From contig DAOWCY010000006.1 in the NCBI GenBank assembly GCA_030639305.1, positions 16,563 through 80,562 of the forward strand: a stretch of 64,000 nt of DNA. Direction: 5' to 3'. This DNA comes from Candidatus Aminicenantes bacterium. Its GTDB lineage: Bacteria > Acidobacteriota > Aminicenantia > UBA2199. Below are positions 1,872-60,908 of this stretch, piece by piece (positions within the stretch are counted from its first letter, which is position 1; every line of letters starts with the position of its first letter). The translations under genes and the position numbers were made by a program. Below the pieces are notes generated by a model. It was not told the origin of the DNA, did no database searches, and was given only the letters and a program-made list of their open reading frames with translations.

Positions 1872-3068
1872 CTAACCTCTATCCATATCACTTTTAAAAA
1901 CGATCTTAAAAACCGTCCCTTTGCTCCTGTCTAAAGAGATGCTGCCGTTTATCTTTTTGCACAGCAGCCTGACCAACTGCATTCCTAAAGCCTCGGATTT
2001 GCGGAAATCTAAATAGTCGGGGAAACCTTTGCCATTGTCACCTATAGTTAATACATAGGTGTTGTTCTTAGAAATAAAGTCGATGACAATTTCCCCTTTT
2101 TTCCCCGGCGGAAAAGCAAATTTCAAGGAGTTCGAGACCAGCTCATTGATAATCAGCCCGCAGGGGATGGCGGTATTGATTTCTAAGAATACATTGCTAA
2201 CATTCTTCTTGAGATTAATATCATCGGGACTGACGGCATAAGTGGTAAATAAATCGGGCAAAAGACTGTCTACATATTCGGAAAAATCAATACTGGAAAA
2301 ATCCCTGGAATTGTATAATTTCTCATGGATCAGGGCCATGGAGCGGATGCGGTTCCAGCTTTCCCGGAAAGCTTTTTTTGCTTTTTCGTCTTTTATTTGC
2401 AGTTCCTGGATGCTGAGCATGCTGGATATGATTTGCATATTGTCGTTAACGCGGTGGTGAATCTCTTTGAGCAGGAGCTCTTTTTCGCGCAGCGATGCTT
2501 TGGTATGCTCTTCCGCCCGTTTGCGTTCGACGATTTCCCGCTGCAGGTCGAAATTGGCTTCCGCCAATTTGGCGGTGCGTTCCCTGACCATCTCTTCTAA
2601 ATGGTCGCGGTGCCGCCGCAGTTCTTCTTCTATCCGGCGGCGCTCGGCCAACTCGCGCTGCAGTTCGTGCAGCAGCCGTTTGTTTTCTATTACCAAATGC
2701 TGCTTCTCTAAGCTCTCCTCGATAGTGGATAGTACTTCATCTATATCTAAGGGTTTGGTGATGTAAGAAGAAGCTCCTTCATTCATGGCCTGTACCGCGG
2801 TCTCTAAAGAAGCGTGACCGGTTACCATGATAATCACTATGTCGGGAAACATTTGTTTTAACAGCGGTATCAGTTCGATTCCCTCCATGTCGGGCAGTTT
2901 GATGTCCAACAGCGCCACATTAAAAAACCGTTCGTGAACTTTGCTGATGGCTTCCCGCCCTGTTTCCACCGCGATGGTTTCATAACCTTTCTTTTTAAAT
3001 ATTAACGATAGACTTCTGCGTGTGCTTTCGGAGTCGTCAACAATCAGGATACTCTCTTTCTCAGCCAT
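1872..3068 (-). CDS. Hybrid response regulator / histidine kinase: N-terminal REC, coiled coil, HisKA_2-like H-box and HATPase_c
   Basis: REC motifs ILIVDDSE...[11 protein letters not shown]...KPLD. A long charged coiled coil. H-box [17 protein letters not shown]. ATPase boxes [13 protein letters not shown] and GDNGKGFP. Start moved to MAEKES (ATG 3068), 2 nt after the stop of the upstream gene; the track start at 3101 overlaps that gene. Confidence 0.8.
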
Positions 3069-3819
3069 CTTTCTTTTCCTTTTTTCTTTCCAATATCTCA
3101 TTGGTGAGATTTAGCATTTCCTTCATGTTCAAGGGTTTGTAGAGACAGGCGTAGGCATTGTTATACAGGGCCGTTTCCACTAACTCGGCCATCTCCTGCC
3201 TGTAGCCAGTCATCATCACGGCCACTGCCCGGGGATTGACTTTTTTGATGGCCAAATAGGTCTCCAGGCCGTTTAAAGTGGGCAGCTTCATGTCGATGAA
3301 AATGATGTCGTAGGTTTCCTGTCCTGCTGTCTCTATGGCTTCTTCACCGGTGTGGGCGATACCTACCCGGAAACCCTTCTTGATCAAAATGTTTTTCAGG
3401 GTGGTGCAGGTACTGGGGTCGTCGTCAACAACCAGTATCAGCGCCCCTTCATTGTTCTGCCGGGCGGTTTCCACCAATTCCAGGATCTTTTCGATGTCTA
3501 TGGGTTTATAGATGATACCGAAGGCGCCCTCTTCTAAGGCCTGCTGCACTAAGTCTTCCACTGCGTAGGCTGTCATCATCATTACTTTGGTGTCCGGGCG
3601 GATCTTTTTGATTCTTTTGTAAGCTTCTACCCCGTTCATCAGGGGCATTTTGATATCCATGAAAATGATATCGAAAGGCTGCTTCTCTACCATTTCTATG
3701 GCTTGAGGCCCGTTCTCGGCAATGGAGACGGTGTAACCTTTGCGCTGCATGATAAAAGCCATGGTTTTACACTGGCTGACATTATCGTCCACTATCAAGA
3801 TATTTGCACTATCCGACAT
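3061..3819 (-). CDS. Response regulator with two tandem receiver (REC) domains and no output domain
   Basis: 252 aa with two complete REC domains (ILIVDDN...[14 protein letters not shown]...KPID and ILVVDDD...[14 protein letters not shown]...KPLN). Its start lies 2 nt from the upstream kinase stop, and 2 nt separate its stop from the downstream gene's start. Confidence 0.8.
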
Positions 3820-3820
3820 T

Positions 3821-5209
3821 TTATCCCTCCTGTAAACCGGTGGGCAGTTTTACCGTAAAGGTCGTGCCTACACCGGTCTCACTTTTTACTTCGATACTAC
3901 CTCCGTGCCCCTCTACAAAGGTTTTCGTGATGGCCATACCCAGGCCGATGCCTTTGGCTTTGCCGGTGAAGAGGGGTTCGAAGATTCTCTTCAGGTGTTC
4001 CTCGGGTATGCCCACTCCTGTGTCCGCAAAAGAGAGAGCCACCCAACCCGGGGCAGTAACCCGGTACTCGATTTGTAGACGTCCTCCTTCGGCCATGGCC
4101 TGGAAGGCGTTTTGTATGATATTGTCGAAAACCCTGGCCAGTTGGTCCGGATCAGCCATGACCAAAGGCAGAGCTTCGTCTAAGCGATTCTCTACTTCGA
4201 TGTTTTCCGCTTTTTTGACACGGTTGAGCGTTTCCCGGATGATGCGACCGAGCTCGATTTTGCGCTTGAGCGGGGGTTTGGCCCGGGCAAAATCCAATAA
4301 ACTGCTGATGATGCGCTCGGAACCATCGACTTCCTTTTCTAAGATAGTTAGCGTCTCCTTTATTTCGGGATCGGGATTCTCCAAAACCATGTTTAAGAAG
4401 TAAACGGAATTCTTTATGGCGCCTAAAGGGTTGCGCAGTTCGTGCCCCACACCGCCGGCCAATTGGCCGATCACGGCCAACCGCTCCTGGCGCATTTGTC
4501 TTTCCTCTTCCAACTGTTTGCGCTCGGTGATATCGTGGATTACACAGACGATTCCCTCTACCTGGCCGCCTTCTCCCTGCATTACCGAACCGGAAAAAGA
4601 GACCGGTATTTTGCGGCCATCTTTGGCTGCGCATATGGATTCCACACCGTTAATGACACCGGTTTTCAACAATTTATCGAAGCCTAATTCTGTGAAGGCC
4701 GGCGGGTCGAAAATTTCGCTTATATGCAGGCCTAACAGTTCGGCTTCCTTGTAGCCCAGCATGTGTGACGCAGCGAGATTCACTTTTTTGATTTTGGCCT
4801 GCGGGGTTAGCACAGTCAGGGTTTCGGACATGGATTGGATGATCTTGTCTAAGAAATCTACGGATACAGTGGAGGAGTGCAGCTCTTCGCCCAAAGCGTT
4901 CATGCCCGAAGCGATGGCGTCGAAGGTATCGCCTTTATCGCTGACAGGCACCCTTTTGCTGTAATCTAAGGTGGCGATGGCCATGATGACTGCCATGATC
5001 TCATCGAGCCTTTTTTCCGCTTCGGTCATGGAAATGAGTCGGTAGGTGAGTTCCTCGGCCAGCATGTTCAGCCCGATAATGATGCCGTCCAAATCATCGT
5101 CTTTCCCCGAGGGCATCTCCGTTTTGCTGAGATCGCCGGCGGCCAATCTCGTAATAAATTCGAGAATCCTGCCGATGCGATTATTGACAGGTGTTGTTTT
5201 TTTTGTCAT
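3821..5209 (-). CDS. Sensor histidine kinase: HAMP-like N-terminus, PAS, HisKA, HATPase_c
   Basis: H-box GHELRNPLGAIKNSVYFL. N/G boxes NIIQNAFQAM and DTGVGIPEEHLKRIFEPLFTGKAKGIGLGMAITK. A PAS-like core lies upstream. There is no evident TM segment, so it is probably cytoplasmic. Confidence 0.85.
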   Translation of the reverse strand: MTKKTTPVNNRIGRILEFITRLAAGDLSKTEMPSGKDDDLDGIIIGLNMLAEELTYRLISMTEAEKRLDEIMAVIMAIATLDYSKRVPVSDKGDTFDAIASGMNALGEELHSSTVSVDFLDKIIQSMSETLTVLTPQAKIKKVNLAASHMLGYKEAELLGLHISEIFDPPAFTELGFDKLLKTGVINGVESICAAKDGRKIPVSFSGSVMQGEGGQVEGIVCVIHDITERKQLEEERQMRQERLAVIGQLAGGVGHELRNPLGAIKNSVYFLNMVLENPDPEIKETLTILEKEVDGSERIISSLLDFARAKPPLKRKIELGRIIRETLNRVKKAENIEVENRLDEALPLVMADPDQLARVFDNIIQNAFQAMAEGGRLQIEYRVTAPGWVALSFADTGVGIPEEHLKRIFEPLFTGKAKGIGLGMAITKTFVEGHGGSIEVKSETGVGTTFTVKLPTGLQEG

Positions 5210-5284
5210 TTTTGAAATCCTCCCCGTTTTTTATTTGTCTCTTTTTTTGAAATTCTTTTCTTCAAGTTTACTCCTTTTATATAT

Positions 5285-5683
5285 CTAAGAATCGTCCTTT
5301 TCCGCGAAACCTTTCAACCAGGCTAAGGCTTTCTCTTCATCGGTAAAAAGTTTGGCATGATAGGCCGGTTTGCCTAATTTTATAAAAAGATTTCCGGTCA
5401 CTTTCGCCAAAGGGGAGACAGCGATTATGGCTGCGGCTTTCAGCAGCTTCGCTGCTTCTTCCGATGCGCCGTAATCCCGCGTTTTTTTGTCCGATGTTTT
5501 GATGCCTGCGATATCGAATAGCACCCGATTCTGATCATGGCCGCTTAACTGTTTATAAGACCTGGTAAGCTCCCGGATTTGTTCGATATTGATCCTTGTG
5601 TGGGGGGTGATCGATACCCGGATGATACCGTCTTCCCCTATCCAAAGTTTTGCGAAATCAAATTCGATTACTTTTTTCTTCAT
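5285..5683 (-). CDS. STAS/SpoIIAA-like domain protein, paralog 1 of 4 (the most divergent)
   Basis: 132 aa. Shares the ...SP(V/L)xKVxGNxF(L/I)xLxKP...KLFT(S/D)EEKAxxWL C-terminal signature with the three downstream paralogs. Family assignment is from recollection of the SpoIIAA-like STAS family. Confidence 0.55.
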   Translation of the reverse strand: MKKKVIEFDFAKLWIGEDGIIRVSITPHTRINIEQIRELTRSYKQLSGHDQNRVLFDIAGIKTSDKKTRDYGASEEAAKLLKAAAIIAVSPLAKVTGNLFIKLGKPAYHAKLFTDEEKALAWLKGFAEKDDS

Positions 5684-5704
5684 TTTTACACCTACTTATG
5701 TACT

Positions 5705-6103
5705 TTAAGACTCCTTTTTGTCGATAAATCCCCGCAGCCAGGATAATGCTTTTTCCTTCGAAGTGAACAACTTCGTGGGAAAGGGCGTCTTATTAATTCC
5801 TAAGAAAAAATTCCCGATCACCCTGCTTACCGGCGAACCGATTAAAAAAGCTTGAGCTAAAGCAGCTTTTAGGGCTTTCTCACTGGAAACATATGATCTC
5901 GCTTCCCGGGTTATATATTTCACTTCTCTTATATCCACAAGGACGGGAGATATTTTACCGCCAATAACATTATACACGGCTGCAGCGTTTTCTTTCATTT
6001 CGGCAAGCGCTATTTCAGCGTTAGGCGAATGCTCCACACAGCAGATATTTTCTTCGTTCAACCAAACCTTAGCAGTTTTTGTTTCGATTACTTCGCTCTT
6101 CAT
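5705..6103 (-). CDS. STAS/SpoIIAA-like domain protein, paralog 2
   Basis: 132 aa, MKSEVIETKTAKVWL...GSPVSRVIGNFFLGINKTPFPTKLFTSKEKALSWLRGF. Roughly 50–60% identical to paralogs 3 and 4. Confidence 0.6.
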   Translation of the reverse strand: MKSEVIETKTAKVWLNEENICCVEHSPNAEIALAEMKENAAAVYNVIGGKISPVLVDIREVKYITREARSYVSSEKALKAALAQAFLIGSPVSRVIGNFFLGINKTPFPTKLFTSKEKALSWLRGFIDKKES

Positions 6104-6128
6104 TCTCTCACATCCTTAATACAAACCA

Positions 6129-6530
6129 TTAGTTTTCCTCCTGCTCCAGGAATGTTTTTAACCATTCTACCGCTTTTTCCTCCGAAGTGAACAACTTAAT
6201 AGGATGGGTCGGGGGTTTATTTAATCCTAAGAAAAAATTCCCGACCACCTTGCTTACCGGCGAACCGGTTAAAAGGGCAGCGGCAGCAGTGACTTTTTCC
6301 ATTTCCCGGCCTGAAGGATATAATCTCGCCTCCCGGGTCATATATTTAACTTTTCTTATATCGATAAAGATAAGAGCTTTTTTGCCGCCAACGACGTTAT
6401 ACGTGGCAGCAACATTTTTTTTCATGTCATCGAGCGTTATTTCAACATCAGGCAATAGCTCCACATGACAGATATTGTCTCTACTCAACCAAATCTTAGT
6501 AGTGCTTGTCTCTGTCACTTCGTTCTTCAT
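6129..6530 (-). CDS. STAS/SpoIIAA-like domain protein, paralog 3
   Basis: 133 aa, MKNEVTETSTTKIWL...GSPVSKVVGNFFLGLNKPPTHPIKLFTSEEKAVEWLKTF. Confidence 0.6.
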   Translation of the reverse strand: MKNEVTETSTTKIWLSRDNICHVELLPDVEITLDDMKKNVAATYNVVGGKKALIFIDIRKVKYMTREARLYPSGREMEKVTAAAALLTGSPVSKVVGNFFLGLNKPPTHPIKLFTSEEKAVEWLKTFLEQEEN

Positions 6531-6555
6531 TCTCTCTCCTCCTTAATACAAACCA

Positions 6556-6951
6556 TTAGTTCTCCTCCTGCTCCAGGAACGATTTTAACCACGCGGTCGC
6601 TTTTTCTTCCGAATTAAACATCCTGGAAGGGAACCGGGGCTTGTTGATGGCCATGAAAAAATTCCCGATCACCTTGCTTACCGGCGAAGTCACCAGGAGA
6701 GCCAGGACTGTGTGAATCTTTTCCGCCTCCTCGCCGGATAAATGCCTCCTGGCGTCCCGGTCTATGGACTTAATAGTCCTGATATCGGTCAGCACCGGGG
6801 TTTTTTTGCCCCCGGTAAGTTTGGCATGGATTTTGAGATGTTCCCTGGCTAATCCGAGATCCATTTCGGCGTTGGGGTGGGTCTCGGAATGAAAAATACC
6901 GTCTTCCAACCACAGTTTGGCTCCTTTTGTTTCGATTACTTCGCTCTTCAT
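6556..6951 (-). CDS. STAS/SpoIIAA-like domain protein, paralog 4. The track start at 6975 adds MPKEEEKE; MKSEV at 6951 matches the paralogs and follows a GAGGAGG Shine-Dalgarno.
   Basis: MKSEVIETKGAKLWL...TSPVSKVIGNFFMAINKPRFPSRMFNSEEKATAWLKSF. Confidence 0.6.
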   Translation of the reverse strand: MKSEVIETKGAKLWLEDGIFHSETHPNAEMDLGLAREHLKIHAKLTGGKKTPVLTDIRTIKSIDRDARRHLSGEEAEKIHTVLALLVTSPVSKVIGNFFMAINKPRFPSRMFNSEEKATAWLKSFLEQEEN

Positions 6952-7185
6952 TTCTTTTTCCTCCTCTTTCGGCATAAATGCCGGACCGCATAAGAGAGCC
7001 GCTTAAGACTCTACATGGCACTCCTACCTCTACTGTTGGGTGAAAATCCTGTTCCGGTGTAACGATAATTTAGCGTTTTGGAGTGTACGACTCTATTTTA
7101 AAAGAAATCTTTCAAGAATTCAATATGTTTGTTGATTTTTTTTTCATAAACCGGTTTTTCTATCGCTTTTCCCCAAATTTGAATC

Positions 7186-7230: not shown

Positions 7231-8046
7231 ATGGAGTGTCCATATTGTCATAAAATTGCTCCGGACACTAATTATAAGTGTCCACACTGCCGCCAGGTTA
7301 TAAAAGATGGCCTCGATCCCCTCAGCCGGTACGAAAAACAAAAACAGGCTGAAAAAAACGATCATCCGCCAACCACAGGGTCACGACCTACAGGGAAACC
7401 CACGGCGGTGAAAACATACTATTTCGTTTTAGCTGCTGTTATTGTCGGTCTGGCTTTGATCGGTTTTTACATGTTACAGCAGAGTCAGGCGCCCAAAACC
7501 GGTAAAAGCAGCGATTCTTCCAGCTACTCACAGCAGTCCCAAAGCGGCGATGATTCTTATGGGAGCGGCACAGAGAGCGGGGAAACCGGCAGGAACTCCG
7601 GGGACAGCGAAGAACCGGAATGGTATGAACCGGAAGAACAACCCGGCGACAAGCCTGTAAGCTATGGATCGAAACCAAGTCGATCATATGAAGAACCGCC
7701 CCGGGTCGCTTATGAACCCGGACAGGAAGTAGAGATCGAAGACCTAATGCAAAGCGGTAAAATCAACATCTTTGATTTTTACAGTGAATTTTGTCCTCCA
7801 TGCCGGCGAATTTCTCCCAAGCTTGAACAGTTAGACCGGCGCAGGGACGACGTCGTGGTGATAAAGATCGATATCAACCGGGAAAATACCCGCGGCATCG
7901 ATTGGAAATCGCCGCTGGCCCGGCAGTATAATCTTTCCAGTATTCCCCATTTTATTATCTACGATGCCGAAGGCCGGCGCACCCACGAAGGCAACTCCGC
8001 TGCTACGCAGGTTATGCAAATGCTCAACAAGGAAGGGATTCGTTGA
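7231..8046 (+). CDS. Membrane-anchored thioredoxin-like protein: N-terminal zinc ribbon, one TM helix, Ser/Gly/Glu-rich linker, C-terminal thioredoxin fold with CPPC
   Basis: CPYCHK...CPHC zinc ribbon. Hydrophobic YYFVLAAVIVGLALIGFYML. Low-complexity SSDSSSYSQQSQSGDDSYGSGTESGETG. Thioredoxin-like FDFYSEFCPPCRRISPKL...IPHFIIYD. Confidence 0.6.
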   Translation: MECPYCHKIAPDTNYKCPHCRQVIKDGLDPLSRYEKQKQAEKNDHPPTTGSRPTGKPTAVKTYYFVLAAVIVGLALIGFYMLQQSQAPKTGKSSDSSSYSQQSQSGDDSYGSGTESGETGRNSGDSEEPEWYEPEEQPGDKPVSYGSKPSRSYEEPPRVAYEPGQEVEIEDLMQSGKINIFDFYSEFCPPCRRISPKLEQLDRRRDDVVVIKIDINRENTRGIDWKSPLARQYNLSSIPHFIIYDAEGRRTHEGNSAATQVMQMLNKEGIR

Positions 8047-9951: not shown

Positions 9952-10519
9952 TTATAAAATTTTTTCTAAGATTTTATAAACTTCGGTTGAGGTTCCTTTG
10001 AGTTTCCCCGACTTCTTGTTCTCTTCATCGAGCTTTTTGGCATTCTCTATCGCCTTGTTTAAATTCTTTTTTAACATTTCGTAGAAATTTTTCTTTTTTT
10101 GATAGTTTTGTGATTTTTGATAATCGGGGATATATTTCTTTAGTTCATGGGTGATGAGGCCGGCGCAGTTATTAAATTCTTTGGCTGTAAATTTATAATG
10201 CAGTAAGAACCATATCTCGAAGCAGGGAGTTGAGATAATAAATTCGATTTTAGGCCCTTGTTTTAAATCGCCTTGCTTTAATGCATCACCGTCTACAATA
10301 CAGAATGCCATGTCATAGTCCCGTTCTTTCTGTTTCTTTTTTGCATATTTCCGACGGCGTTGACCTTTTGGGATTGTATATGTCTATTTTTATATTTGAC
10401 AGCCTTTCCTTTCTTTTTAAATTCTCAAAGTAAATTTTTTCACATGAGCCTTCGCATACAACCAGGAAAGTACTCTTTAAAGGGCGATATTTCTTTCTTC
10501 TCTTAAAATCTTTACTCAC
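9952..10519 (-). pseudogene. RloB-like (AbiLii-like, TOPRIM-related) protein split by a 1-nt frameshift near 10311-10315
   Basis: Upstream piece (10313..10519) has LVVCEGSCEKIYF, an RloB-type CEGxxTExxYF N-terminus. Downstream piece (9952..10311) continues in another frame. Reading that frame upstream gives ERDYDMAFCIVDGD, which contains the family acidic motif, so the two ORFs were one gene. Confidence 0.55.
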
Positions 10520-11813
10520 TTAAAATATTCCCCAATACAGGCAGAGCACCGTAAGCACCGTTTAGATAACCGTTCTTAATGGATTTGTCTTTGCGCGGTT
10601 TCGGTTTAAAATCGGTAAGAGAGAATAACTCGGTGCTGCCGTCTTCTTTTTTTTCGGTAAACCAGATTTCGTCCCGGCGCAGCAACCTGTCTTCCAGCAG
10701 TTGGACATTATGGCTGGTAAATATAATTTGGGCTTCCGTTGAATTTTTAAAAAATTCCGCGAGCAATTTTTTTTGCAGGTCGAAATGGAGCGAGTCTTCG
10801 AGTTCATCGACAATTAAAACACCACCTTGCTCGATTATATCGAGCAGGGGGCCTGCCAATTCGAATATCCTGACGGTACCCTTGGATTCATTCATGAAGT
10901 CGATGTTTGCCGTGACTTCATTATTATCGGAAATCGCACTGTGGATCATTTCTATGTCGAAAATCTTGCCTTCTTCTACTTCTTTTTTTACTTCATCCGG
11001 AAATTTATCGAAATCGGTGAATTGTTCTTTTTTCAGTTTTTCAACTTTAACATCATTTATTCCTAAATCGGCTGATTTTAAGAGAGAAACGACTTTCTTT
11101 TTTTGATTATCGCTTTCTTCGATAAAATTCAAAGTGAATACAGTCAATCCCCTTGTCCCCTGAGCGATTCCCGGTCTCAAGAATCCCAAAAACCAGGAAA
11201 AAACTCTTTCAAGAATAGGGTGAGCAAATTGGGCGCCCACCGTTAAATATAAAGAATCCCGCCTGGTTAAGGACTCTATTTTTTTCTTTTCTCCTTTAAA
11301 ATTATTGCCGAATTTGTGGGTGTACCGGGGTTTTTTTTCTTCGGAAGCGGATAGCTCGAGGTTCTTTTCCTCAACTATCTTTCGCTCAAACAGGAGCACT
11401 TTTTTTTTACCAGGGTAAAAATAGAGCCACTCTTCTATTACTTTTTCCCTGTCTATCTTGAAACCATAAATATATTTTTTTTTCTTTAGGATAAAAGCGG
11501 CTTCAAAAAATCCCGGTTCATCCTGGGTCTTTCGATCTAACTTAAATGGCTCATGACCGGTTTTTTTTCTCATTTTTTCCCCGGAAGTAGACTCGATTAT
11601 AAAATTTCTCATGAAAAAAAGCGCCTGGAGTAAATTCGATTTGCCGGAAGCATTGGCGCCGAAAATAGCAGCAGACTTCAGGAGTTTTAGATTTACTCCA
11701 GTCGGTTCTATACAGTGGGTCTGCTCCATCTCTGTATCCTTGTCGGCAATCATACTCAACTGCTGCCTGCCTTTAAAAGACAAGAAATTCTCGACCTCGA
11801 ATCGAATCAACAT
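10512..11813 (-). CDS. AAA_21-type ABC/SMC-like ATPase (RloA/AbiLi-like)
   Basis: MLIRFEVENFLSFKG...FGANASGKSNLLQAL Walker A. C-terminal VLIVDELEDSLHFDLQKKLL...IIFTSHN Walker B/D-loop. Overlaps the RloB-like ORF start by 8 nt. Start set at ATG 11813 (MLIRFEV). Confidence 0.7.
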   Translation of the reverse strand: MLIRFEVENFLSFKGRQQLSMIADKDTEMEQTHCIEPTGVNLKLLKSAAIFGANASGKSNLLQALFFMRNFIIESTSGEKMRKKTGHEPFKLDRKTQDEPGFFEAAFILKKKKYIYGFKIDREKVIEEWLYFYPGKKKVLLFERKIVEEKNLELSASEEKKPRYTHKFGNNFKGEKKKIESLTRRDSLYLTVGAQFAHPILERVFSWFLGFLRPGIAQGTRGLTVFTLNFIEESDNQKKKVVSLLKSADLGINDVKVEKLKKEQFTDFDKFPDEVKKEVEEGKIFDIEMIHSAISDNNEVTANIDFMNESKGTVRIFELAGPLLDIIEQGGVLIVDELEDSLHFDLQKKLLAEFFKNSTEAQIIFTSHNVQLLEDRLLRRDEIWFTEKKEDGSTELFSLTDFKPKPRKDKSIKNGYLNGAYGALPVLGNILSE

Positions 11814-12033
11814 GATTCCTCCTTTTTTTATGGTATTATACACCATTTTTTGTGATTTTTCCACAAAAACAACCGTTTTTTTTGAGATTCGGGGCATTTT
11901 TTTTATTTCGTTGTCTTCATTTTTTTAATTCTTCGATATTCGATATTCGGAGTTCGCTGTTCGATATTCTACCCGGTGTTCACTTTTTACAGCCTCTTTT
12001 TTTACCGGGAAACAGGAATTTTTTCGATAACTC

Positions 12034-33689: not shown

Positions 33690-36600
33690 CTACCTCTTAA
33701 ATTTCCAGCGGAAACGCGTCCGCAAACCGCTGTCCTCAAACTGCATCGAAACCCCAAGAAAAGTAAATCCGGCTAATAATCCAAATTCCCGGTCACCCTC
33801 CCTATACGCGGGCTGCCTCTGCTTGAAAACCGTGCCGTAAACAGAACTCCCGATATGGAAGTTTTCCCATACAAAATGACCTTCACCGGGATGCCTGGGC
33901 GTGAAACCGAATAACTGCGCGTGCTTCGCCGCCGCTCCCTCTATAGACGCGCTGCCACTAAGCACAATAGGAAATAAATGACCGGCGCCTTCAAAAGCTT
34001 CAAACAATTTACCGTCCTGGTGGGCTTCAAATAACCCGGGCAATTGCAGTTCACAAGCATCAGGATAAGCCCGCAGAGAAAATCCCTGTAAACTGCCCTG
34101 ATCCACGGCGGTAATCTTCTCCCGGTGCGACCAGGGTATATTCCGTATGAGCAAAAAGCGGTCCTGTAACTCGACGCCGAATCGAAGCTTGATAATCCCG
34201 GCTATGCCAAAAGAAAAAACCCACTGGTCGCGGTTTTCCACCTGGTGCACCCGCACCTGTAATTCGCGCCAGCGATCGCGCTGCCTGAGCGCAGGCACGG
34301 ACCTCTTCAAAAAACTGAGGGTGCGCCCCGGGTCCCGGGTCTCTATAATCAAGGTGCAGGGCCGGGTGAGCACCGAAAGCAAAACCGGCAGCGAAAGCAT
34401 CCCGCTGGCTGACGACCCGCCGAAATTAGCATCGAATATCCCCAACAAGTCGCCACTGCCTAAAGCGATGACCGGGTCGGCGTCATGTACGGTTAGATGC
34501 AGCCCGGGCCCGAAATCCTCGAATATGGCGGGGTGTATAGGCAAATATCGCGATAATAAACTGTAACCGTCTTTGACAATGCCCCGCCAGGCTTCCTCGC
34601 CAAGATTGAGCGAAAGCATAAGCACCGGGTCCCGGGACAAGCGCGGGATATTTAACGGTTCATTGTCCGTTTTGCTTTTTAATGCGCCTTTTAAAGAGTT
34701 ATAAATAGTGTTATCCACCAGCGGCAGGATAAAAATTTCCGCTTCCAAAAAACCGTCCTCAGCTTCATCTAAACGCAGCGCTATAGGATCGAAATACTCC
34801 CGCCAATAACTGGAATACTGATCTACATAACCTTTGTAAGCCTTTTTTTCCTTTTCCGAGACGCGCTGCACCGGAGCTTGCGAGATGGGCTTCATATGAG
34901 CCAGGGTGCCGTAGGTTTTGGAGTGCAAGATGTGATCCTTATCGAAATAATATTCCCCGCCCGGGCTGCCGTCCCGCGCAGATACCGCTGCTTCGCCCTT
35001 TACAGTTGGGGCTGGACGCGCCGCCGCCCTCCTGGAAATATAGCCGTAATCTATCAGGCTTTCGATGGAAAAGGGGGATCCTCTGCCGTCCAATTGGGCC
35101 AGCAGGGAGCGGGAAGTGAGGTATTCCATGTAGGCCCGGGCCCGGATGCGCCGCAGTTGGCCGATCTTAACCGCGGGCCCCACTAACCGGCGAATAAAAG
35201 GATCGGAAAAATAAACGTAACCCCAGGTGGATTTTTTAAGCGGCAGCTTGCTTAACATGTAACGAAATTCATCGCTAAGCCCTAAACTGCCTTTACCGCC
35301 GCTGTTCTTTAACTGTAAAATTTTCGCCACTTCATTTTTATTAGTGCCGATTAGCAGCAGGTCGTCCCAAAAAGACCAGTAGACGTTGGCACCGTTCTTT
35401 GATCGGAAAGCGGTTATGCGTTTTTCGGCCAGCTCTTTTTTACCCAGCAGTTGCAGCAGGGATTTTATCGCGCCGGGTTTGCTCAAACGCGCGGCCACAG
35501 TGACGTCGGTGCCGTCGATAAAAAAAAGATCGGGAAAAATCAGGGCGCACTCTTTAATGATCCCGGCTTCTAATAATGTGCGCAGCAGCTTGCGGTCGAA
35601 TCCTAAACGGGCGGGGTATTTCTTGTCTAATTCGTAATCCACGCCATTGCCGGTAAAGGCGGTGCCCATGCGGTGCAAAAAACCGCAGCCCTGGTCCAAA
35701 AAAGCAAGAATGTCGCGGGGATTGGCTATGTAAACGAAAAAACGGTTTTGGGGCGTCACATCGGCCAGGGGCAGCGTGCCGCTTTTGCCACTGCTTTTTT
35801 TTAACATTTCCCGGAAAGGGTGGGATTCGACTTGTACGCCTGCTATAGATTCCACGTCGATGACGTAGTCCGCGGGCCGCTCCCCCGCGGCGTTTGCCCC
35901 GCCTGCCAGCACCTGCATTTGCAGGGTTTCCCGCACCGCGGCCCGGCCTCCCAATATATCGAAAACCGAGAGACTTTTCCCCCGCCTGTCCCAGCGCTCC
36001 CACGAGAAAAAGAAATCATCGTCGTCTCCTTCTTTTAGGGCTGTCAACCAGGTGGTCAACAGCGGCGATTGAGAAAGCCCGGCATAGGGTAACCAGGTGG
36101 CGAAACGCTGCTTATCAATGTCGATATGTTCACCTTCTTTTGCCTGGACGGCTCTGCGCATATCCCATTTTATTTCCATGGTATCGCCGGAATAGGCATT
36201 CTCCACAGTGAGCAGCAGCGGTTTTCCCGGTTTTGCTTTACATACCGCGGTCAGGGTATAGGAGTGCTTATCCGGTTCTATTACCGGCATCTCTTTTTTT
36301 TTCGGGATAACCGGATGAATGGTCTGTTTATATTTTTTAAGCAGCTTTTTGTCTACCGGCAGGCGCTGGCAGGAGCCGCCGGTATCGAGCACCCAATGTT
36401 TGCCGTCATCCACGTAGGGCCGCAGTTCGAAGGCTAATGTCTCTTTATCTTTTGCCCGGACGAATCTGTCTTTTTCCTGGAAACGGAAATTTGCCCGGGG
36501 AACCAGGAAGATAAAAGGCCCTTTTATATCCTGCCCGGCAGGGGAATCATAAGGCGACCGGGCAAGATTTTTTTGCAGGTATTTATATCTTTTTTCTTCA

Positions 36601-37022
36601 ATAATATCTTGGATGGATGAAGGCCCTGTATTACCGTGTTTCCCGGCGTATTCGGCGCAGGGCCAATAAAGGCGCTGCAAAAAGTGGCGTCCTTTCGTTA
36701 TTTGTTTTTTTTCCGTGATGGCTTTTAAACGTCCGCCCTGCCGGTCATTGTGCAGCGGCGTCGTGGGCTGCAGGTACAGTTCCGTGATATTTTTTTTAGC
36801 TGCGCCGCCGGAATCGACGATCTGCCAATATCCCTGCACCGGGAGCTGCACTTCGCCCCGGTATTTAGTATAGAACGAACCGGGCTGCCGGAAAAAAAGG
36901 CTTTTTTTTACACTCAGCGGGGCCAGTTTATTCAGCGCCCCGTAAGTTAGGACAAAAAATAATCCCAAAACCGCCGCCCACTTGACATATGATGAAATGT
37001 TTTTTATTTTTTTCTTTTCCAT
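33690..37022 (-). CDS. Large secreted hypothetical protein (1110 aa)
   Basis: N-terminal signal/anchor VKWAAVLGLFFVLTYGALN. A long uninterrupted ORF with no motif I can assign. The antisense ORFs 34147.., 34878.., 35386.., 35554.., 35820.., 35894.. and 36126.. are shadows of it. Confidence 0.5.
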   Translation of the reverse strand: MEKKKIKNISSYVKWAAVLGLFFVLTYGALNKLAPLSVKKSLFFRQPGSFYTKYRGEVQLPVQGYWQIVDSGGAAKKNITELYLQPTTPLHNDRQGGRLKAITEKKQITKGRHFLQRLYWPCAEYAGKHGNTGPSSIQDIIEEKRYKYLQKNLARSPYDSPAGQDIKGPFIFLVPRANFRFQEKDRFVRAKDKETLAFELRPYVDDGKHWVLDTGGSCQRLPVDKKLLKKYKQTIHPVIPKKKEMPVIEPDKHSYTLTAVCKAKPGKPLLLTVENAYSGDTMEIKWDMRRAVQAKEGEHIDIDKQRFATWLPYAGLSQSPLLTTWLTALKEGDDDDFFFSWERWDRRGKSLSVFDILGGRAAVRETLQMQVLAGGANAAGERPADYVIDVESIAGVQVESHPFREMLKKSSGKSGTLPLADVTPQNRFFVYIANPRDILAFLDQGCGFLHRMGTAFTGNGVDYELDKKYPARLGFDRKLLRTLLEAGIIKECALIFPDLFFIDGTDVTVAARLSKPGAIKSLLQLLGKKELAEKRITAFRSKNGANVYWSFWDDLLLIGTNKNEVAKILQLKNSGGKGSLGLSDEFRYMLSKLPLKKSTWGYVYFSDPFIRRLVGPAVKIGQLRRIRARAYMEYLTSRSLLAQLDGRGSPFSIESLIDYGYISRRAAARPAPTVKGEAAVSARDGSPGGEYYFDKDHILHSKTYGTLAHMKPISQAPVQRVSEKEKKAYKGYVDQYSSYWREYFDPIALRLDEAEDGFLEAEIFILPLVDNTIYNSLKGALKSKTDNEPLNIPRLSRDPVLMLSLNLGEEAWRGIVKDGYSLLSRYLPIHPAIFEDFGPGLHLTVHDADPVIALGSGDLLGIFDANFGGSSASGMLSLPVLLSVLTRPCTLIIETRDPGRTLSFLKRSVPALRQRDRWRELQVRVHQVENRDQWVFSFGIAGIIKLRFGVELQDRFLLIRNIPWSHREKITAVDQGSLQGFSLRAYPDACELQLPGLFEAHQDGKLFEAFEGAGHLFPIVLSGSASIEGAAAKHAQLFGFTPRHPGEGHFVWENFHIGSSVYGTVFKQRQPAYREGDREFGLLAGFTFLGVSMQFEDSGLRTRFRWKFKR

Positions 37023-42458: not shown

Positions 42459-45400
42459 TCATTGATTATTGTTCAGGCGCTGTAGTTGTGTGTGGGCGTC
42501 TTCTATTTCGATTTGGCCGGGGTCTGCTTTTTCCCACAAACGGAGGAATTCTTTATAATTTTCCAGCGCCTCTTTTTCCCGGCCTAATTCTTGATAGATT
42601 TTCCCCAGGTAATAGAAACTCTTAACATAGACGTCCCCGAAATAGAACCGCCCTAAAGTTAAAGCCGTTATCTTATCGAATTGCCGGCCGGCCTTTTCCC
42701 AGGAACCCTTTTTATAATATGTGAGAGCCAGTTCAAACAAGCACATAGCCTGCTGGTTTGAAAAAAAACTCTCCTTATACTCATGAGGGCCGTATGACAG
42801 CGCCTTTTTCAAATAGGAAACCGCCCGGTCGAAGTTTTTGTTTTCTCTTTCGAGCCTACTTTTAGCAAGATAATAATACCTGTAATCTTTTTTGAAGGGG
42901 CTTTTTTTGCAGTTGCCTTCTAATTCTTTGATCGTTTTTCCGGCTTCCCGGTTTTGCCCTAATTTAAGATACGCCAGGGCTTCGTAGAAAAGTTTTCTGC
43001 CCAGGAAGTAAACGGGCCAAGGCGTTTCATCTAACTTTATATAATTTTTTATGGCCGCCAGCGCCCGGTGCGGTTTACCCAACCTTAAATAGAGATGAAC
43101 CAATTCGTATGCAGTGAGCAGTTTATCTTCTTTGTCTTTCATCCCGGCAAAATTTTCTTTTAGGAGCTTAATGGATTCAGCAAACCTGCCCTGGTGCAGG
43201 TACAGGAGTCTCAGGTTTCTAATTCTATCGGAATAATATCTTTCATCTTTTTCGTCCCGCGGCATATTTTTAAATTCTTGTTCGGCTTTTTCTAAATCTC
43301 CGCGGTATAGATAAATTTTCCCTTTATTGAATTTGAAAATCGCAAGTTTGTTATCTTCCGCGGCGATCTTTTCATTCACTTCCCAGGCCAGGAGGAAAGC
43401 TTTTTTGATAAGATGTATGTCGAATACTAAACCGTACAGCATCGGCCTTATTTTCCCCGGGAAGTTACGGTGGTAATTTTTCTCCACTGCCACTGCTTTA
43501 TCGTACCTCCCTTCCGCCATGTAAGTCCAGGTAAGGAATATATAGGGCATCTGTTCATCGTTGATCCCGTCTGCTGCCCGTTCTAAATATGGAAGCGCAC
43601 GCCGCCAATCTTGCAGTAACGTAAGCAGCCCTCCAAAGTGGGTGTTGGCTTCATAATTACCGGGATATATTTTTAGAAGTTTTTTAAAAGACGAGACCGC
43701 TTTTTTAAAGGTTTCTTCAGCGTTGCTGAAAAAACCTGCTTCCAGCAGTAATCTTTTTTTTGCAGATAAATGCTGCCTGTACTGCATGGCTTTATCGTAA
43801 TATTTTTTCTTTTGGTCCTCTTTTTGCAGTACAGCATATGCCAGGGCTATCTCTTTATAAACTAAGGCATAACCGGGATCCAATTCAATGGCTTCCTTGA
43901 ACAAAAGAATACTTTCTTCATATTTTTCTTCGTTGAATTTCAGTTTGCCCGCACTGTATCGTTCTAATGCCTCGCGAGAAGAAGTGGTAATGGTTTCGAT
44001 GTTTTCGTCCACATCCGCTTCAAGTTTATCATGGGGGATATTGAAGGCTGCTTTGATATCCGGGGTCAAACTGTCTACAATGGAAAATATCGCTTCCTCC
44101 TCCTTCATGTCTTCTGTGAAAGTAGAGAGATTTTCCCCACTCCGCGGATTCAGAATTCTTACGGTGACTCGCATCTTGCCCCCGGAAGTCATATAGCTGC
44201 CGATTAAAAAGTAATCGATATTTTCTTCCGAAGTAATTTTTTTATATACTTCAGTGGTGTAGGGGCTGCCTATTTTATGTTTTATTTTACCGAATATGTC
44301 GAGCAGGCGGTTCTCCGGCAGCACCCAAAAAAATTTGGATTGTTCCAGGTCTGTTGTCAATAGGTGAAAAAAAGTAAACTCCAGGTTGTTTTGGAGTGGT
44401 TGTCCGGTTAGTTCCGTGAAAGGCAGCACTGCCACCCGTATCTTTTTTGGGGGAAAGATTTCTTCTTCTTTTAAAAGTTCCGCTAACTTGAATGCCCCAA
44501 ATAAAGCCAATAGAATAAATATAAATATGGCAGTTAGGCGGGGCAGCCGGTTCTGTTTAAACCGCTGCAGGAAAGGGCCTTTAAAGATGGCGCTGGAATC
44601 CATATCCACCAGCAGGTCTGTAATACATTGGTAGCGGTACTTTCTTTTTTTCTCCAGGCATTTTTTCACGATATTTTTAAGGTAAGTGGGAATTTTTTTC
44701 CCCGGTTTATCAGGGAAAACCGGTTTGGCTCTTAAATGTTTATGCAGGTAGCCGAGATCTGTTTCGGACACAAAGGGATGCTCTCCGGTTATCATTTCGA
44801 ATATGATGATGCCCAACATATAGATGTCCACACGGTTGTCTACTTTCTCTCCCAACCACTGCTCCGGAGCGATATAGCGGGGGGTGCCGACCAACGCCCC
44901 GGAATGAGTGATACCTGTGCTGTCAGCCGATTTTGCCAGGCCGAAATCGGTGATATATACATTGTTTCCCTTATCGATCATAATATTGTTGGGGTTTAAA
45001 TCGCGGTGTACTATTCCCTTCTTATGAGCCGCCAGCAGCCCCATACAGATTTGTTTTAAGATAGCTTTTGTTTTCTCGATAGGCAGCGGGCCTGATTCGG
45101 CCAGCATATCTTTTAGACTTATTCCTTCGATATACTGCATGGAGATAAACTTCACTTCCCCCACTTCGCCGAAATCATAGATGCGCACCACATTTTCGTG
45201 GGCGATTTCCCTGGCCAGCCGTATCTCCTCTTTAAACCGGCTTATCATCCGCTGGTCCGTAAGGAATTCAGGCTTGATGGTTTTTAATGCCGCGGTGGTA
45301 TTTAAAACTTTGTCTTCGGCTTTGTAGACTATCCCCATGCCGCCTCTGCCGAGTTCCTCGATTATCTTATAGCGGCTGCCGAAATCATCGCCCGGGGAAA

Positions 45401-45539
45401 ATATAAAGGGGTTGTCTTCGCTAAAGTCTTTAGTAGTTTCCGCCGGGTGGTTAGCTTTTTTGTCCCGCAGGGAACTGCCGCACTTATGGCAGTAAAAATT
45501 ATCGGCAGGGACTTCGGTTTTACATTTCGGACAATTCAT
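42459..45539 (-). CDS. Serine/threonine protein kinase with N-terminal zinc ribbon, single TM and a long C-terminal TPR-repeat region
   Basis: CPKCKTEV...CHKCG zinc ribbon. Kinase subdomains GRGGMGIVYKA, HRDLNPNNIMI, DFGLAK, GTPRYIAPE. Hydrophobic LTAIFIFILLALFGAF. Many TPR-like helices follow. Confidence 0.8.
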   Translation of the reverse strand: MNCPKCKTEVPADNFYCHKCGSSLRDKKANHPAETTKDFSEDNPFIFSPGDDFGSRYKIIEELGRGGMGIVYKAEDKVLNTTAALKTIKPEFLTDQRMISRFKEEIRLAREIAHENVVRIYDFGEVGEVKFISMQYIEGISLKDMLAESGPLPIEKTKAILKQICMGLLAAHKKGIVHRDLNPNNIMIDKGNNVYITDFGLAKSADSTGITHSGALVGTPRYIAPEQWLGEKVDNRVDIYMLGIIIFEMITGEHPFVSETDLGYLHKHLRAKPVFPDKPGKKIPTYLKNIVKKCLEKKRKYRYQCITDLLVDMDSSAIFKGPFLQRFKQNRLPRLTAIFIFILLALFGAFKLAELLKEEEIFPPKKIRVAVLPFTELTGQPLQNNLEFTFFHLLTTDLEQSKFFWVLPENRLLDIFGKIKHKIGSPYTTEVYKKITSEENIDYFLIGSYMTSGGKMRVTVRILNPRSGENLSTFTEDMKEEEAIFSIVDSLTPDIKAAFNIPHDKLEADVDENIETITTSSREALERYSAGKLKFNEEKYEESILLFKEAIELDPGYALVYKEIALAYAVLQKEDQKKKYYDKAMQYRQHLSAKKRLLLEAGFFSNAEETFKKAVSSFKKLLKIYPGNYEANTHFGGLLTLLQDWRRALPYLERAADGINDEQMPYIFLTWTYMAEGRYDKAVAVEKNYHRNFPGKIRPMLYGLVFDIHLIKKAFLLAWEVNEKIAAEDNKLAIFKFNKGKIYLYRGDLEKAEQEFKNMPRDEKDERYYSDRIRNLRLLYLHQGRFAESIKLLKENFAGMKDKEDKLLTAYELVHLYLRLGKPHRALAAIKNYIKLDETPWPVYFLGRKLFYEALAYLKLGQNREAGKTIKELEGNCKKSPFKKDYRYYYLAKSRLERENKNFDRAVSYLKKALSYGPHEYKESFFSNQQAMCLFELALTYYKKGSWEKAGRQFDKITALTLGRFYFGDVYVKSFYYLGKIYQELGREKEALENYKEFLRLWEKADPGQIEIEDAHTQLQRLNNNQ

Positions 45540-60615: not shown

Positions 60616-60744
60616 ATTATTAATATATATACCGAAATGACCTTAAAATCAATACTTTTTATTAATATTATCCGATTTTTTCTAAATCATTGAACGATCC
60701 GCCGTTATTCAGCGGGATTTTGTTTAATTTAAATCCTCTGCTTC

Positions 60745-60880
60745 TATTAATTCTCTTGTTTTCCACGTCTAAACTTTTTCTCGCAATTCCGCTTGTGTAA
60801 TAAAATCACCTCTTTCCAGGGCACACTCGGATTCTTCTATCCTTTCATAAAAGGATTCAAAGTTCATTGGCGGCATAGTA
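60745..60880 (-). pseudogene. Degenerate remnant of an antitoxin gene 3' end plus the first nucleotides of a parE-like gene. About 80% identical over roughly 115 bp to 56325-56445.
   Basis: Direct alignment of TTCCACGTCTAAACTTTTTCTCGCAATTCCGCTTGTGTAATAAAATCACCTCTTTCC...GATTCTTCTATCCTTTCATAAAAGGATTCAAAGTTCATTGG with 56334-56450. The translated remnant ...FESFYERIEESECALERGDFITQAELREKV parallels the 56327..56620 protein. Confidence 0.5.
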
Positions 60881-60908
60881 TATAAAGGTGCGGAATCAGG
60901 CTTCATTT

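Follow-up and report, generated by a model that had tools for sequence, protein, structure and literature searches.

Four tandem genes for STAS-fold DUF7793 proteins precede a HAMP-type histidine kinase in a Candidatus Aminicenantes bacterium and may encode its input subunits

The window analyzed here, that is, the whole stretch of 64,000 nt, belongs to a Candidatus Aminicenantes bacterium (GCA_030639305.1, contig DAOWCY010000006.1, positions 16,563–80,562 of the forward strand). On its minus strand we find four intact open reading frames encoding proteins of 131–133 residues, here called D, C, B and A in the order of transcription, and three phosphorelay genes that follow them. The features of the locus, listed in the direction of transcription, are:

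7095..7123, minus strand: match to the sigma-70 promoter consensus (TTGAAT-17-TAAAAT), located 5′ of D in the divergent intergenic region; no more than a consensus match, tentative
6556..6951, minus strand: paralog D, 131 aa, which opens the array (PF25056, E 6.9e-33)
6531..6555, minus strand: D/C spacer, containing the Shine-Dalgarno sequence AAGGAGG; 23/25 identity to the C/B spacer
6129..6530, minus strand: paralog C, a chimera, 133 aa (PF25056, E 2.6e-30)
6104..6128, minus strand: C/B spacer, a near-copy of the D/C spacer
5705..6103, minus strand: paralog B, 132 aa (PF25056, E 1.2e-29)
5285..5683, minus strand: paralog A, 132 aa, adjoining the kinase gene (PF25056, E 2.7e-27)
5210..5284, minus strand: A/HK1 spacer, 75 nt, with GGGAGG ahead of the ATG; partly conserved in a related locus (L079)
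3821..5209, minus strand: HK1, a cytoplasmic histidine kinase with two HAMP-like repeats, PAS, HisKA and HATPase_c (Pfam)
3061..3819, minus strand: REC-REC double-receiver protein, starting 1 nt past the HK1 stop
1872..3101, minus strand: hybrid kinase (REC-HisKA_2-HATPase_c); the gene overlaps the end of the one for REC-REC and closes the putative operon

The four paralogs, the di-HAMP-PAS kinase, the REC-REC protein and the REC-HisKA_2 kinase thus make up one putative minus-strand operon with the paralogs at its 5′ end. An earlier reading of the sequence alone (the sequence-only reading) had placed the array downstream of the phosphorelay; transcription runs from 6951 to 1872, so the array lies upstream of it. 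The longest open reading frame of gene D extends to 6975, but the ATG at 6951 has AGGAGG 8–9 nt upstream, and the public annotation also starts the gene there, giving 131 aa. For the REC-HisKA_2 kinase, the annotated start is 11 codons further in (398 aa). Each of the four paralogs has its own ribosome-binding site, and all four open reading frames are intact and identical across five independent assemblies. Promoter and terminator scans of the region returned matches not above shuffled expectation, and Rfam and tRNA scans of the 64-kb window found nothing.

All four proteins, each about 130 aa long, are stand-alone domains of DUF7793, a family that branches off within the STAS/SpoIIAA fold. 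They match PF25056 with 95.5, 103, 105.2 and 113.5 bits (gathering cut-off, 26 bits), in every case from position 1–2 to 112 of the 113 profile positions. These matches (E 1e-27 to 1e-33), together with an alignment containing 29 invariant columns, bear out the earlier claim of four mutually similar tandem genes; the C-terminal signature proposed for them is likewise real, as SP(V/L)..V.GN.F and KLF..EEKA..WL are among the invariant columns. Out of 16 family positions conserved at 80% or more, D and B keep 15, C keeps 14 and A keeps 13. The most conserved residues of the family include I19, D56, R68, S89, G96, N97, P108, F112, A118, W121 and L122. A solved homolog, 3BL4 (Arth_0117 of Arthrobacter sp. 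FB24), matches at E 1.8e-25 over 110 residues and shares with the four proteins the motifs SPV.RV..NFFLG.N and P.PTK.FTSE..AL.WL. It is a structural-genomics entry from an uncharacterized family, and DUF7793 is mentioned by no paper in the library searched.

The proteins had also been described as STAS/SpoIIAA-like, and here the fold and the sequence families have to be told apart. The AlphaFold2 (AF2) model of D (pLDDT 94.7) has a STAS fold, an α/β structure superposable on solved STAS domains, and its structural neighbors include SpoIIAA, RsbV, RsbS, RsbR and SiaC. At the level of profiles, however, none of the four proteins matched Pfam STAS (PF01740) or STAS_2 (PF13466) at E ≤ 1. The SpoIIAA-like profile (PF11964; gathering cut-off, 25 bits) is passed by A alone, with 30.7 bits, while C, B and D score 20.0, 15.3 and 14.5. 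The profile check that had been proposed for these three families therefore places all four proteins in DUF7793, with a SpoIIAA-like assignment reached only by A, the copy that NCBI names ‘STAS/SEC14 domain-containing protein’. No meaningful hit came from an NCBIfam scan of the four proteins, and hhalign did not align the family alignment with an approximate SpoIIAA sequence. The superposition of 3BL4 on the AF2 model is poor (TM 0.32–0.37) despite 31% identity.

The kinase encoded next to A, HK1, begins with two HAMP-like repeats (residues 5–60, nt 5030–5197, and residues 61–116, nt 4862–5029), which are related to each other by a 55-residue ungapped internal alignment. The full protein matches Pfam HAMP with 27.7 bits (cut-off, 25 bits) as well as PAS_9, HisKA and HATPase_c; taken alone, repeat 2 scores 23.7 bits against the HAMP profile. 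A profile built from the HAMP-like N-termini matches the poly-HAMP structure 9TRK (E 8e-4) and Aer2 (E 0.15), and 8 of 20 partner kinase N-termini match Pfam HAMP (best E 7.3e-7), individual segments often falling below threshold. Judged by Pfam and by the solved HAMP arrays, the N-terminus of HK1 is a HAMP domain. The maximum Kyte-Doolittle hydropathy of HK1 over 19 residues is 1.20, there is no membrane segment, and the protein has one PAS domain and no other obvious sensor.

The association of DUF7793 with kinases that start with HAMP and lack a membrane segment extends well beyond this locus. Related loci were gathered by two conserved peptide motifs, which makes the sample biased, and 64 of them had enough flanking DNA. 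In 46 of the 64, the last DUF7793 gene is immediately followed by the gene for a HAMP-type kinase, meaning one with an N-terminus like the HAMP region of HK1, and within the closest subfamily this holds for 37 of 38 loci. A distant subgroup, to which the six-copy Saprospira array belongs, has a kinase neighbor in only 1 of 13 loci, indicating that kinase coupling is not universal in the family. Across the related loci, most DUF7793 and kinase genes are separated by −28 to +6 nt, a spacing suggestive of translational coupling. Within about 10–20 residues the partner kinases open with the HAMP-like sequence IL(D/E)V..YA.LDF...D.FDAIA.G.NMLGEEL; this N-terminus is constant, whereas the catalytic core varies among loci (HisKA or HisKA_2). 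The same pattern recurs in three more loci from other phyla, found in a Gammaproteobacteria MAG, an Anaerolineales MAG and a 3.5-Mb genome. Moreover, seven representatives are fused, with one or two DUF7793 domains followed by 12–35 residues and then by HAMP-(PAS)-HisKA-HATPase. The domain order of these natural fusions mirrors the gene order in the window. Literature searches on DUF7793, on DUF3478 and on STAS or SpoIIAA-like proteins together with sensor kinases did not turn up a description of the pairing.

Multiplicity is another recurrent feature of the family, for which a profile search returned 6,453 clusters at 50% identity. Single chains with two, three or four DUF7793 domains exist, and of the 23 proteins in the top 150 representatives that are at least 200 aa long, 15 have two domains or more. 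In the AF2 model of one two-domain fusion (P0007) the domains are well folded (pLDDT 86.6), and its pTM of 0.53 says nothing on domain packing. Gene arrays of 2–6 copies occur in Nannocystis, Saprospira and Anaerolineales; copy number shows no consistent relation to the number of HAMP repeats across loci. The two partners are on average charge-complementary, with a mean net charge of +1.8 for DUF7793 proteins and −5.3 for the kinase N-termini, which weakly favors a link between them.

Taken as a whole, this gene context leads us to propose, with a probability of about 0.55, that the DUF7793 proteins serve the soluble di-HAMP-PAS kinase as input or regulatory subunits that can dissociate from it. 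With the genes lying 5′ of the kinase gene, and the fused domain preceding HAMP in the chain, DUF7793 occupies the position of an input and not of an output. The DUF7793 proteins would dock on or next to the N-terminal HAMP four-helix bundle of HK1, a site taken by a transmembrane sensor in ordinary sensor kinases, and docking would bias the HAMP/PAS conformation, thereby affecting how the kinase autophosphorylates and passes phosphate to the two receiver proteins. Both the binding to HAMP and the direction of regulation we infer from gene context. The signal sensed might be a small ligand, or else the STAS-like domain might be modified, and the paralogs probably provide alternative or heteromeric inputs. 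The comparative evidence of kinase adjacency, fusions and further loci agrees with one of the two roles suggested in the sequence-only reading, that of sensory adaptors for the neighboring phosphorelay.

Could the four proteins instead be soluble and carry or bind some small hydrophobic molecule, a role proposed for the related DUF3478 proteins 2OOK and 2Q3L, and be co-transcribed with the kinase without controlling it directly? The NCBI family name, ‘STAS/SEC14 domain-containing’, points in this direction, as does the distant subgroup without kinase linkage. We nevertheless consider this unlikely, since within the kinase-linked subfamily a kinase gene is nearly always adjacent, stop and start codons overlap, and some members are covalently fused to HAMP kinases, all of which argues for a direct functional link. 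Ligand binding as such would be compatible with the proteins being input subunits, the ligand then being the signal.

The history of the array bears on whether every copy matters. The period of about 425 bp reported earlier is confirmed by repeat finders, which give 420–427 nt (TRF, period 427, 1.9 copies; a direct repeat of 300 nt at 79% identity was also found). The near-identity of the spacers holds for the D/C and C/B pair (6531–6555 against 6104–6128) but does not extend to the B/A spacer (5684–5704), which is unrelated to the other two. Indeed, high nucleotide identity is limited to about 90 nt around the D/C and C/B junctions. The reason that these two spacers are near-identical is that C is chimeric. 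It resembles B in the upstream spacer and over codons 1 to about 115, and D in its last ~70 nt and the downstream spacer; in a sliding window, identity is 70–86% between C and B over the 5′ part and then 82–93% between C and D at the 3′ end. Such a chimeric structure is the signature of unequal crossover. At the amino-acid level, A is 35–39% identical to B, C and D, which are 50–57% identical among themselves. For B and C (57%), dS is ~0.5–0.67 and dN/dS ~0.45–0.55, and dS is saturated for every other pair. Recent tandem duplication, concluded earlier from the spacers, is therefore ruled out for the array as a whole: by both amino-acid identity and dS the copies are old.

Comparison with other genomes adds to this picture. 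D is the copy most like its relatives elsewhere, being 64–72% identical to three homologs (P0003–P0005) and to both copies of a related locus (L007). A is the most divergent copy, and its ortholog (P0018, 64% identical) occupies the same position in another locus (L079), where the order is [D/C-like]-A-kinase. In L007/L008, two copies lie ahead of the same three-gene phosphorelay in the same gene order, and in L009 the arrangement is DUF7793-PAS kinase-DUF7793-REC. The copy number among relatives thus ranges from 2 in L007 and at least 2 in L079 to 4 here. In our best reading the array arose through birth-and-death duplication, with A as an old, separately conserved kinase-proximal type and D as the conserved distal type. 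B and C are later arrivals, C being the product of a D-like gene recombining with a B-like one by unequal crossover.

An array that grows by unequal crossover, as the chimeric C attests, might also consist largely of redundant or decaying duplicates, with a single copy (D or A) mattering and the rest being drifting leftovers. The fairly relaxed B–C dN/dS of ~0.5, the variable copy number among relatives and the truncated copies of 84 and 90 aa in the five-copy Anaerolineales array are in keeping with this idea. It appears improbable, though, because each of the four open reading frames is intact, retains 13–15 of the 16 conserved positions and is preceded by its own ribosome-binding site, because a dS that is 0.5 or saturated without disruption indicates long-term maintenance, because A has orthologs in the same position, and because fusions with two to four domains imply that multiplicity has been selected in the family. 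On the strength of the intact frames, the conserved positions and the B–C dN/dS, all four copies look functional. An array of pseudogenes we rejected on the first two of these grounds, the frames being intact in all five assemblies.

The other role suggested in the sequence-only reading was that of partner-switch outputs. The four proteins would then be anti-sigma-antagonist-like outputs of the phosphorelay, with a serine kinase and a PP2C phosphatase setting their phosphorylation state and hence their partner. What invites this idea is the STAS fold, with SpoIIAA, RsbV, RsbS, RsbR and SiaC among the structural neighbors, and the presence of two large Ser/Thr kinases encoded elsewhere in the window. 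In addition, the N-cap column of helix 2 is T/S in 57% and D/E in 32% of the family, and in the array it is Asp in A and D and Thr in B and C, a pattern one might interpret as a phospho-site that is replaced in some copies by phosphomimetic residues; yet S, T and D are also the normal preference at a helix N-cap. In a weak HMMER alignment to RsbR (E 0.12), with a register uncertain by one residue, this column (column 64; T30/S27/D27/E5) stands opposite the Asp that precedes the phospho-Thr, and column 65 (R 75%, K 11%) stands opposite the phospho-Thr itself. The strand-4/helix-2 register of the models agrees with column 65 being at the phospho-site. As hhalign against SpoIIAA gave nothing, secondary structure and the weak RsbR alignment are the basis for the register. 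The position of the canonical phospho-Ser is thus most likely taken by a conserved Arg/Lys (86%), give or take one residue in register, so that the search for a conserved phosphorylatable residue had a mixed outcome: a T/S-rich column exists, but the likely equivalent of the phospho-Ser is basic.

The genes that partner switching would call for were not encountered either. An RsbW/SpoIIAB-type kinase, PP2C and sigma factor are absent from the 64 kb and from the Pfam-annotated neighbors of six other loci. Specifically, there is no stand-alone HATPase_c_2 protein in the 64 kb or in the annotated neighborhoods of L007, L009 and L081–L083, no PP2C or SpoIIE domain in the annotated genes of the window or of these loci, and no candidate sigma-factor target was seen in the 64-kb window. 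Given also the missing matches to Pfam STAS and STAS_2, the N-terminal position of the domain in kinase fusions and the upstream position of the genes, we regard a partner-switch role as very unlikely.

It is similarly hard to favor an anti-kinase or scaffold whose target is the catalytic core (DHp/CA) and not HAMP, in the manner of Sda or KipI on KinA or of the stressosome STAS scaffold that sequesters RsbT: small protein kinase inhibitors are well known, RsbR and RsbS are structural neighbors and the RsbR STAS domain gives the weak sequence match mentioned above, but the partner kinases combine two unrelated cores (HisKA and HisKA_2) with a common HAMP-like N-terminus, and it is HAMP that the domain abuts in the fusions.

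If the DUF7793 proteins are indeed input subunits, a broader and considerably more tentative idea follows the same lines. DUF7793 might define a widespread class of ‘split’ sensor kinases, not yet described, in which HAMP receives its input from a free STAS-fold protein in place of a membrane sensor; 2–6 paralogs, as arrays or multi-domain chains, might form a heteromeric complex that integrates several signals, in effect a mini-stressosome without the serine kinase. HAMP domains are usually seen as relays of a transmembrane signal, and there are many histidine kinases without a membrane sensor, the input to which is not known. For HAMP-first kinases, DUF7793 offers a concrete candidate for this input, one that can be tested. 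STAS domains are known for their roles in anti-sigma partner switching, stressosomes and transporter regulation, and their repertoire would, if the idea is true, extend past these. The four-copy array, with its one demonstrably chimeric member, would then show input diversification by unequal crossover. For genome annotation, members now called ‘STAS/SEC14 domain-containing’ or ‘hypothetical’ could be flagged as kinase-associated.

Comparison with known systems helps to delineate what may be distinctive here. With SpoIIAA/RsbV, the four proteins share no sequence relationship detectable through Pfam STAS; their partner by genomics is a histidine kinase, with no serine kinase, PP2C or sigma factor encoded nearby, and Arg/Lys most likely occupies the phospho-Ser position. 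In the stressosome, the STAS scaffold of RsbR paralogs and RsbS is built from several co-assembling paralogs. Here, neither an RsbT-type kinase nor an RsbX phosphatase is found in the operon or the window, the proteins consist of the STAS-like domain alone without a separate N-terminal sensor, and the partner is a HAMP histidine kinase. In Pseudomonas aeruginosa, the STAS-like DUF1987 protein SiaC activates the diguanylate cyclase SiaD and is switched via a phospho-Thr by the phosphatase SiaA and the kinase SiaB. The present locus has no SiaA/SiaB-like pair, and SiaC acts on a GGDEF cyclase, whereas the genomic partner here is a histidine kinase. As for DUF3478, we know of no reported kinase link. 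Only A reaches the cut-off of this family (PF11964; 2OOK, 2Q3L), B, C and D remaining below it. Its members are predicted carriers of hydrophobic compounds and have been called ‘metamorphic’. The logic is shared with the small proteins that control soluble histidine kinases, as in the pairs PII (GlnB)-NtrB, Sda-KinA and FixT-FixL. There, too, a separate small protein carries or relays a signal to a cytoplasmic kinase, but the folds are unrelated and these proteins act on the catalytic/DHp region, whereas the conserved partner element of the DUF7793 proteins is the N-terminal HAMP.

Four minus-strand ORFs, each with a product of 131-133 aa, were called in the interval 5285-6975, and they run in one direction with three phosphorelay genes, from 6951 down to 1872:

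6975 or 6951 to 6556, minus strand: D, ORF, 131 aa from 6951, first in transcription order
6530 to 6129, minus strand: C, ORF
6103 to 5705, minus strand: B, ORF
5683 to 5285, minus strand: A, ORF, next to the kinase gene
5209 to 3821, minus strand: HK1, a cytoplasmic HAMP-HAMP-PAS-HisKA-HATPase_c kinase
3819 to 3061, minus strand: REC-REC protein
3101 to 1872, minus strand: REC-HisKA_2-HATPase_c kinase

For D, the ATG at 6951 is preceded by AGGAGG 8-9 nt upstream, and the public annotation has the same start and a 131-aa product. That the four genes are genuine tandem paralogs, as the sequence-only reading had it, is confirmed by their protein alignment with 29 invariant columns, including SP(V/L)..V.GN.F and KLF..EEKA..WL, and by a tandem period of 420-427 nt reported by repeat finders. 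The identical four-gene array is present in five independent assemblies. The original observation is real once its polarity and age are corrected. As to polarity, transcription from 6951 to 1872 places the paralogs upstream of the phosphorelay genes and not, as had been claimed, downstream of them. A gap of 75 nt separates A from HK1, the REC-REC gene begins 1 nt past the HK1 stop, and the last kinase gene overlaps the REC-REC gene. HK1 (462 aa; HAMP, PAS_9, HisKA, HATPase_c) is without a membrane segment, and its residues 1-116 form two HAMP-like repeats, which align with each other over 55 residues without a gap. Divergent from the array, at 7231-8046 on the plus strand, lies a gene whose 271-aa product combines a CxxC...CxxC zinc-ribbon-like motif at the N-terminus, a membrane segment, a linker rich in Ser, Gly and Glu, and a thioredoxin domain at the C-terminus. 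A 1921-bp metagenome contig (L006) matches 4979-6240, a stretch with B, A and ~230 nt from the start of HK1, and departs at 4979 into the end of a 112-aa ORF and a TusA gene on the opposite strand. This reflects either chimeric assembly or a rearrangement inside the kinase gene of that strain.

All four proteins are full-length matches to Pfam DUF7793 (PF25056; E 1e-27 to 1e-33), and add new members to a family that is catalogued yet unstudied. The earlier assignment to STAS/SpoIIAA-like proteins holds at the level of the fold. None of the four matches Pfam STAS or STAS_2, and only A passes SpoIIAA-like PF11964. NCBIfam has no model for any of them. A profile search of 1.84 billion representatives gave 6,453 clusters at E <= 1e-3, mostly of 125-135 aa, for which source records offer nothing beyond the names 'hypothetical protein' and 'STAS/SEC14 domain-containing protein', and we found no mention of DUF7793 in the literature searched. 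The sole solved structure found by the family profile is 3BL4 from Arthrobacter sp. FB24 (E 1.8e-25), of unassigned function. The AlphaFold model of D is confident, with a pLDDT of 94.7 and a pTM of 0.88.

The genomic surroundings of the family were surveyed in a scan by motif, with each species represented by a single genome; it yielded 66 loci, mostly from Bacteroidota, Nannocystis and Gemmatimonadota, in which ORFs were called and searched with profiles built from the window's own domains. A kinase with an HK1-HAMP-like N-terminus directly follows the last DUF7793 gene in 46 of the 64 loci that have 600 nt or more of downstream sequence, and in 37 of the 38 loci most closely related to the window proteins; in the exception (L009) the kinase lies between two DUF7793 genes. 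The gene gaps are mostly -28 to +6 nt, and the partner kinases start almost at residue 1 with IL(D/E)V..YA.LDF...D.FDAIA.G.NMLGEEL. The profile of this N-terminal segment matches the poly-HAMP structures 9TRK (E 8e-4) and Aer2 (E 0.15), and Pfam HAMP is matched by 8 of 20 segments. The HAMP N-terminus is kept across loci; the catalytic core differs, being HisKA or HisKA_2. In a Longimicrobiales MAG (L047, 6392-8587) the reading frame of the kinase gene behind DUF7793 continues into HTH_21 and rve integrase domains; an insertion sequence has probably landed in that gene or become fused to it. Close relatives of the window organism have two copies before the same three-gene relay (L007, L008) or retain the order [D/C-like]-A-kinase (L079; A 64% and kinase N-terminus 85% identical to the window). 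Three further loci, picked from other phyla, show the same pattern: one copy overlapping a HAMP-PAS kinase in a Gammaproteobacteria MAG, five copies (two truncated) before a HAMP-containing hybrid kinase in an Anaerolineales MAG, and two copies before a di-HAMP-PAS-HisKA_2 kinase in a 3.5-Mb genome. A more distant DUF7793 subgroup lacks the kinase linkage (1 of 13 loci) and seems to have a different partner; to it belong the arrays of six and 4+2 copies in Saprospira grandis DSM 2844 (L063, 4315-6787, and L072), which have no kinase nearby.

Of the 150 top representatives, 23 reach or exceed 200 aa. In seven of these natural proteins, one DUF7793 domain or two precede HAMP-(PAS)-HisKA-HATPase, at a distance of 12-35 residues. 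This domain order is the same as the gene order in the window, which puts DUF7793 at the input end, adjoining HAMP. Another 11 consist of two to four DUF7793 domains in a chain, including P0008 (662 aa), with three domains and about 250 C-terminal residues without a Pfam match; the others include one REC-DUF7793, one 2xDUF7793-REC and two with a single DUF7793 and no other recognised domain. P0009 (578 aa) strings four domains along one polypeptide with Pro/Gln/Glu-rich linkers. The model of a natural two-domain fusion (pTM 0.53) gives no inter-domain packing. Of the two roles proposed earlier, that of sensory adaptors is supported by comparative genomics.

The other proposed role, that of partner-switch outputs, is not supported. 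No RsbW/SpoIIAB-type kinase, PP2C phosphatase or sigma factor was found in the 64-kb window, essentially all of which was annotated, or near six other loci whose flanking genes were annotated with Pfam. Among canonical STAS domains, that of RsbR alone gave a sequence alignment, a weak one (E 0.12); in it, family column 65, at the start of helix 2 (R 75%, K 11%), faces the phospho-Thr, and column 64 faces the Asp before it, in a register possibly off by one residue. The strand-4/helix-2 register of both AlphaFold models agrees with it. Hence, subject to a possible one-residue shift, the canonical phospho-acceptor has most likely been replaced by Arg/Lys. Column 64 is T in 30%, S in 27%, D in 27% and E in 5% of the family (Asp in A and D, Thr in B and C), and such an S/T/D pattern is usual for a helix N-cap residue. 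Two very large protein kinases of the Ser/Thr type are also encoded in the window, Pkinase-TPR (1026 aa; 42459-45539, minus strand) and Pkinase-guanylate cyclase-AAA_16-TPR (1452 aa; 49537-53895, plus strand).

The duplication was thought to be recent. The array is instead old, since dS is ~0.5-0.67 for B-C (dN/dS ~0.45-0.55) and saturated for every other pair; amino acid identity is 35-39% between A and the rest, 57% for B-C and 50% for both B-D and C-D. The notion of duplicated spacers applies to D|C (6531-6555) and C|B (6104-6128), identical at 23 of 25 positions, but not to B|A, which is unrelated. The likeness of the two spacers arises because C switches from B-like to D-like: in a sliding comparison it resembles B from the upstream spacer to about codon 115 (70-86% nucleotide identity), and D across its last ~70 nt and the following spacer (82-93%). 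Such a pattern is expected if a D-like and a B-like gene underwent unequal crossover, which turns D-B into D-C-B and duplicates the D 3' end and spacer. Some 90 nt around each of the two junctions are roughly 92% identical, better conserved than the gene bodies, which may reflect a constrained ribosome-binding region or else a conversion that came later. D is closest to homologs elsewhere (64-72% identity), A is an old, separately conserved, kinase-adjacent type, and B and C form the youngest pair, C being a chimera. No copy looks like a pseudogene, as each retains 13-15 of the 16 most conserved family positions. Copy number among relatives (2, at least 2, 4, and 5 with fragments) differs in a way that fits birth-and-death evolution by unequal crossover, and having several paralogs is a trait selected for in this family. 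The five tandem ORFs before the hybrid kinase in the Anaerolineales MAG (L082, 4219-6153) include an 84-aa N-terminal and a 90-aa C-terminal fragment, indicating decay of copies within such arrays.

Elsewhere in the window, 9952-11897 (minus strand) encodes an AAA_21 ATPase (461 aa) and then a RloB-like gene, seemingly split into ORFs of 68 aa (10313-10519) and 119 aa (9952-10311) in different frames, the latter matching RloB profile positions 69-195 only; this is likely a frameshifted gene or pseudogene of a RloA/RloB-type pair. A defence-island-like cluster at 56834-61841 (minus strand) includes an AAA_23/SMC-like ATPase (878 aa), a SLFN_AlbA_2/HATPase_c_4 protein (385 aa) and a CAP12-PCTIR TIR plus phosphoribosyltransferase protein (310 aa), with BrnT/CopG-like toxin-antitoxin genes in the matching contig L078. 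A 1110-aa ORF at 33690-37022 (minus strand; 1092 aa as annotated in the matching contig) has no Pfam domain on record.

In the most economical reading, A-D are dissociable input or regulatory subunits of a soluble di-HAMP-PAS kinase and would act at the position where a transmembrane sensor normally acts; that they bind HAMP we only infer. Candidate signals are a hydrophobic ligand, by likeness to the one proposed for DUF3478 (PMC2954197), and modification of residue 64. We found no description of a link between DUF7793 and HAMP-first kinases in the literature searched, and regard it as a lead of moderate interest that can be tested, not as a surprise. PII-NtrB is a known system working in a comparable way. 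Another is SiaC-SiaD, where four molecules of the STAS-like SiaC attach to the helical stalks of dimeric SiaD (PMC8457831).
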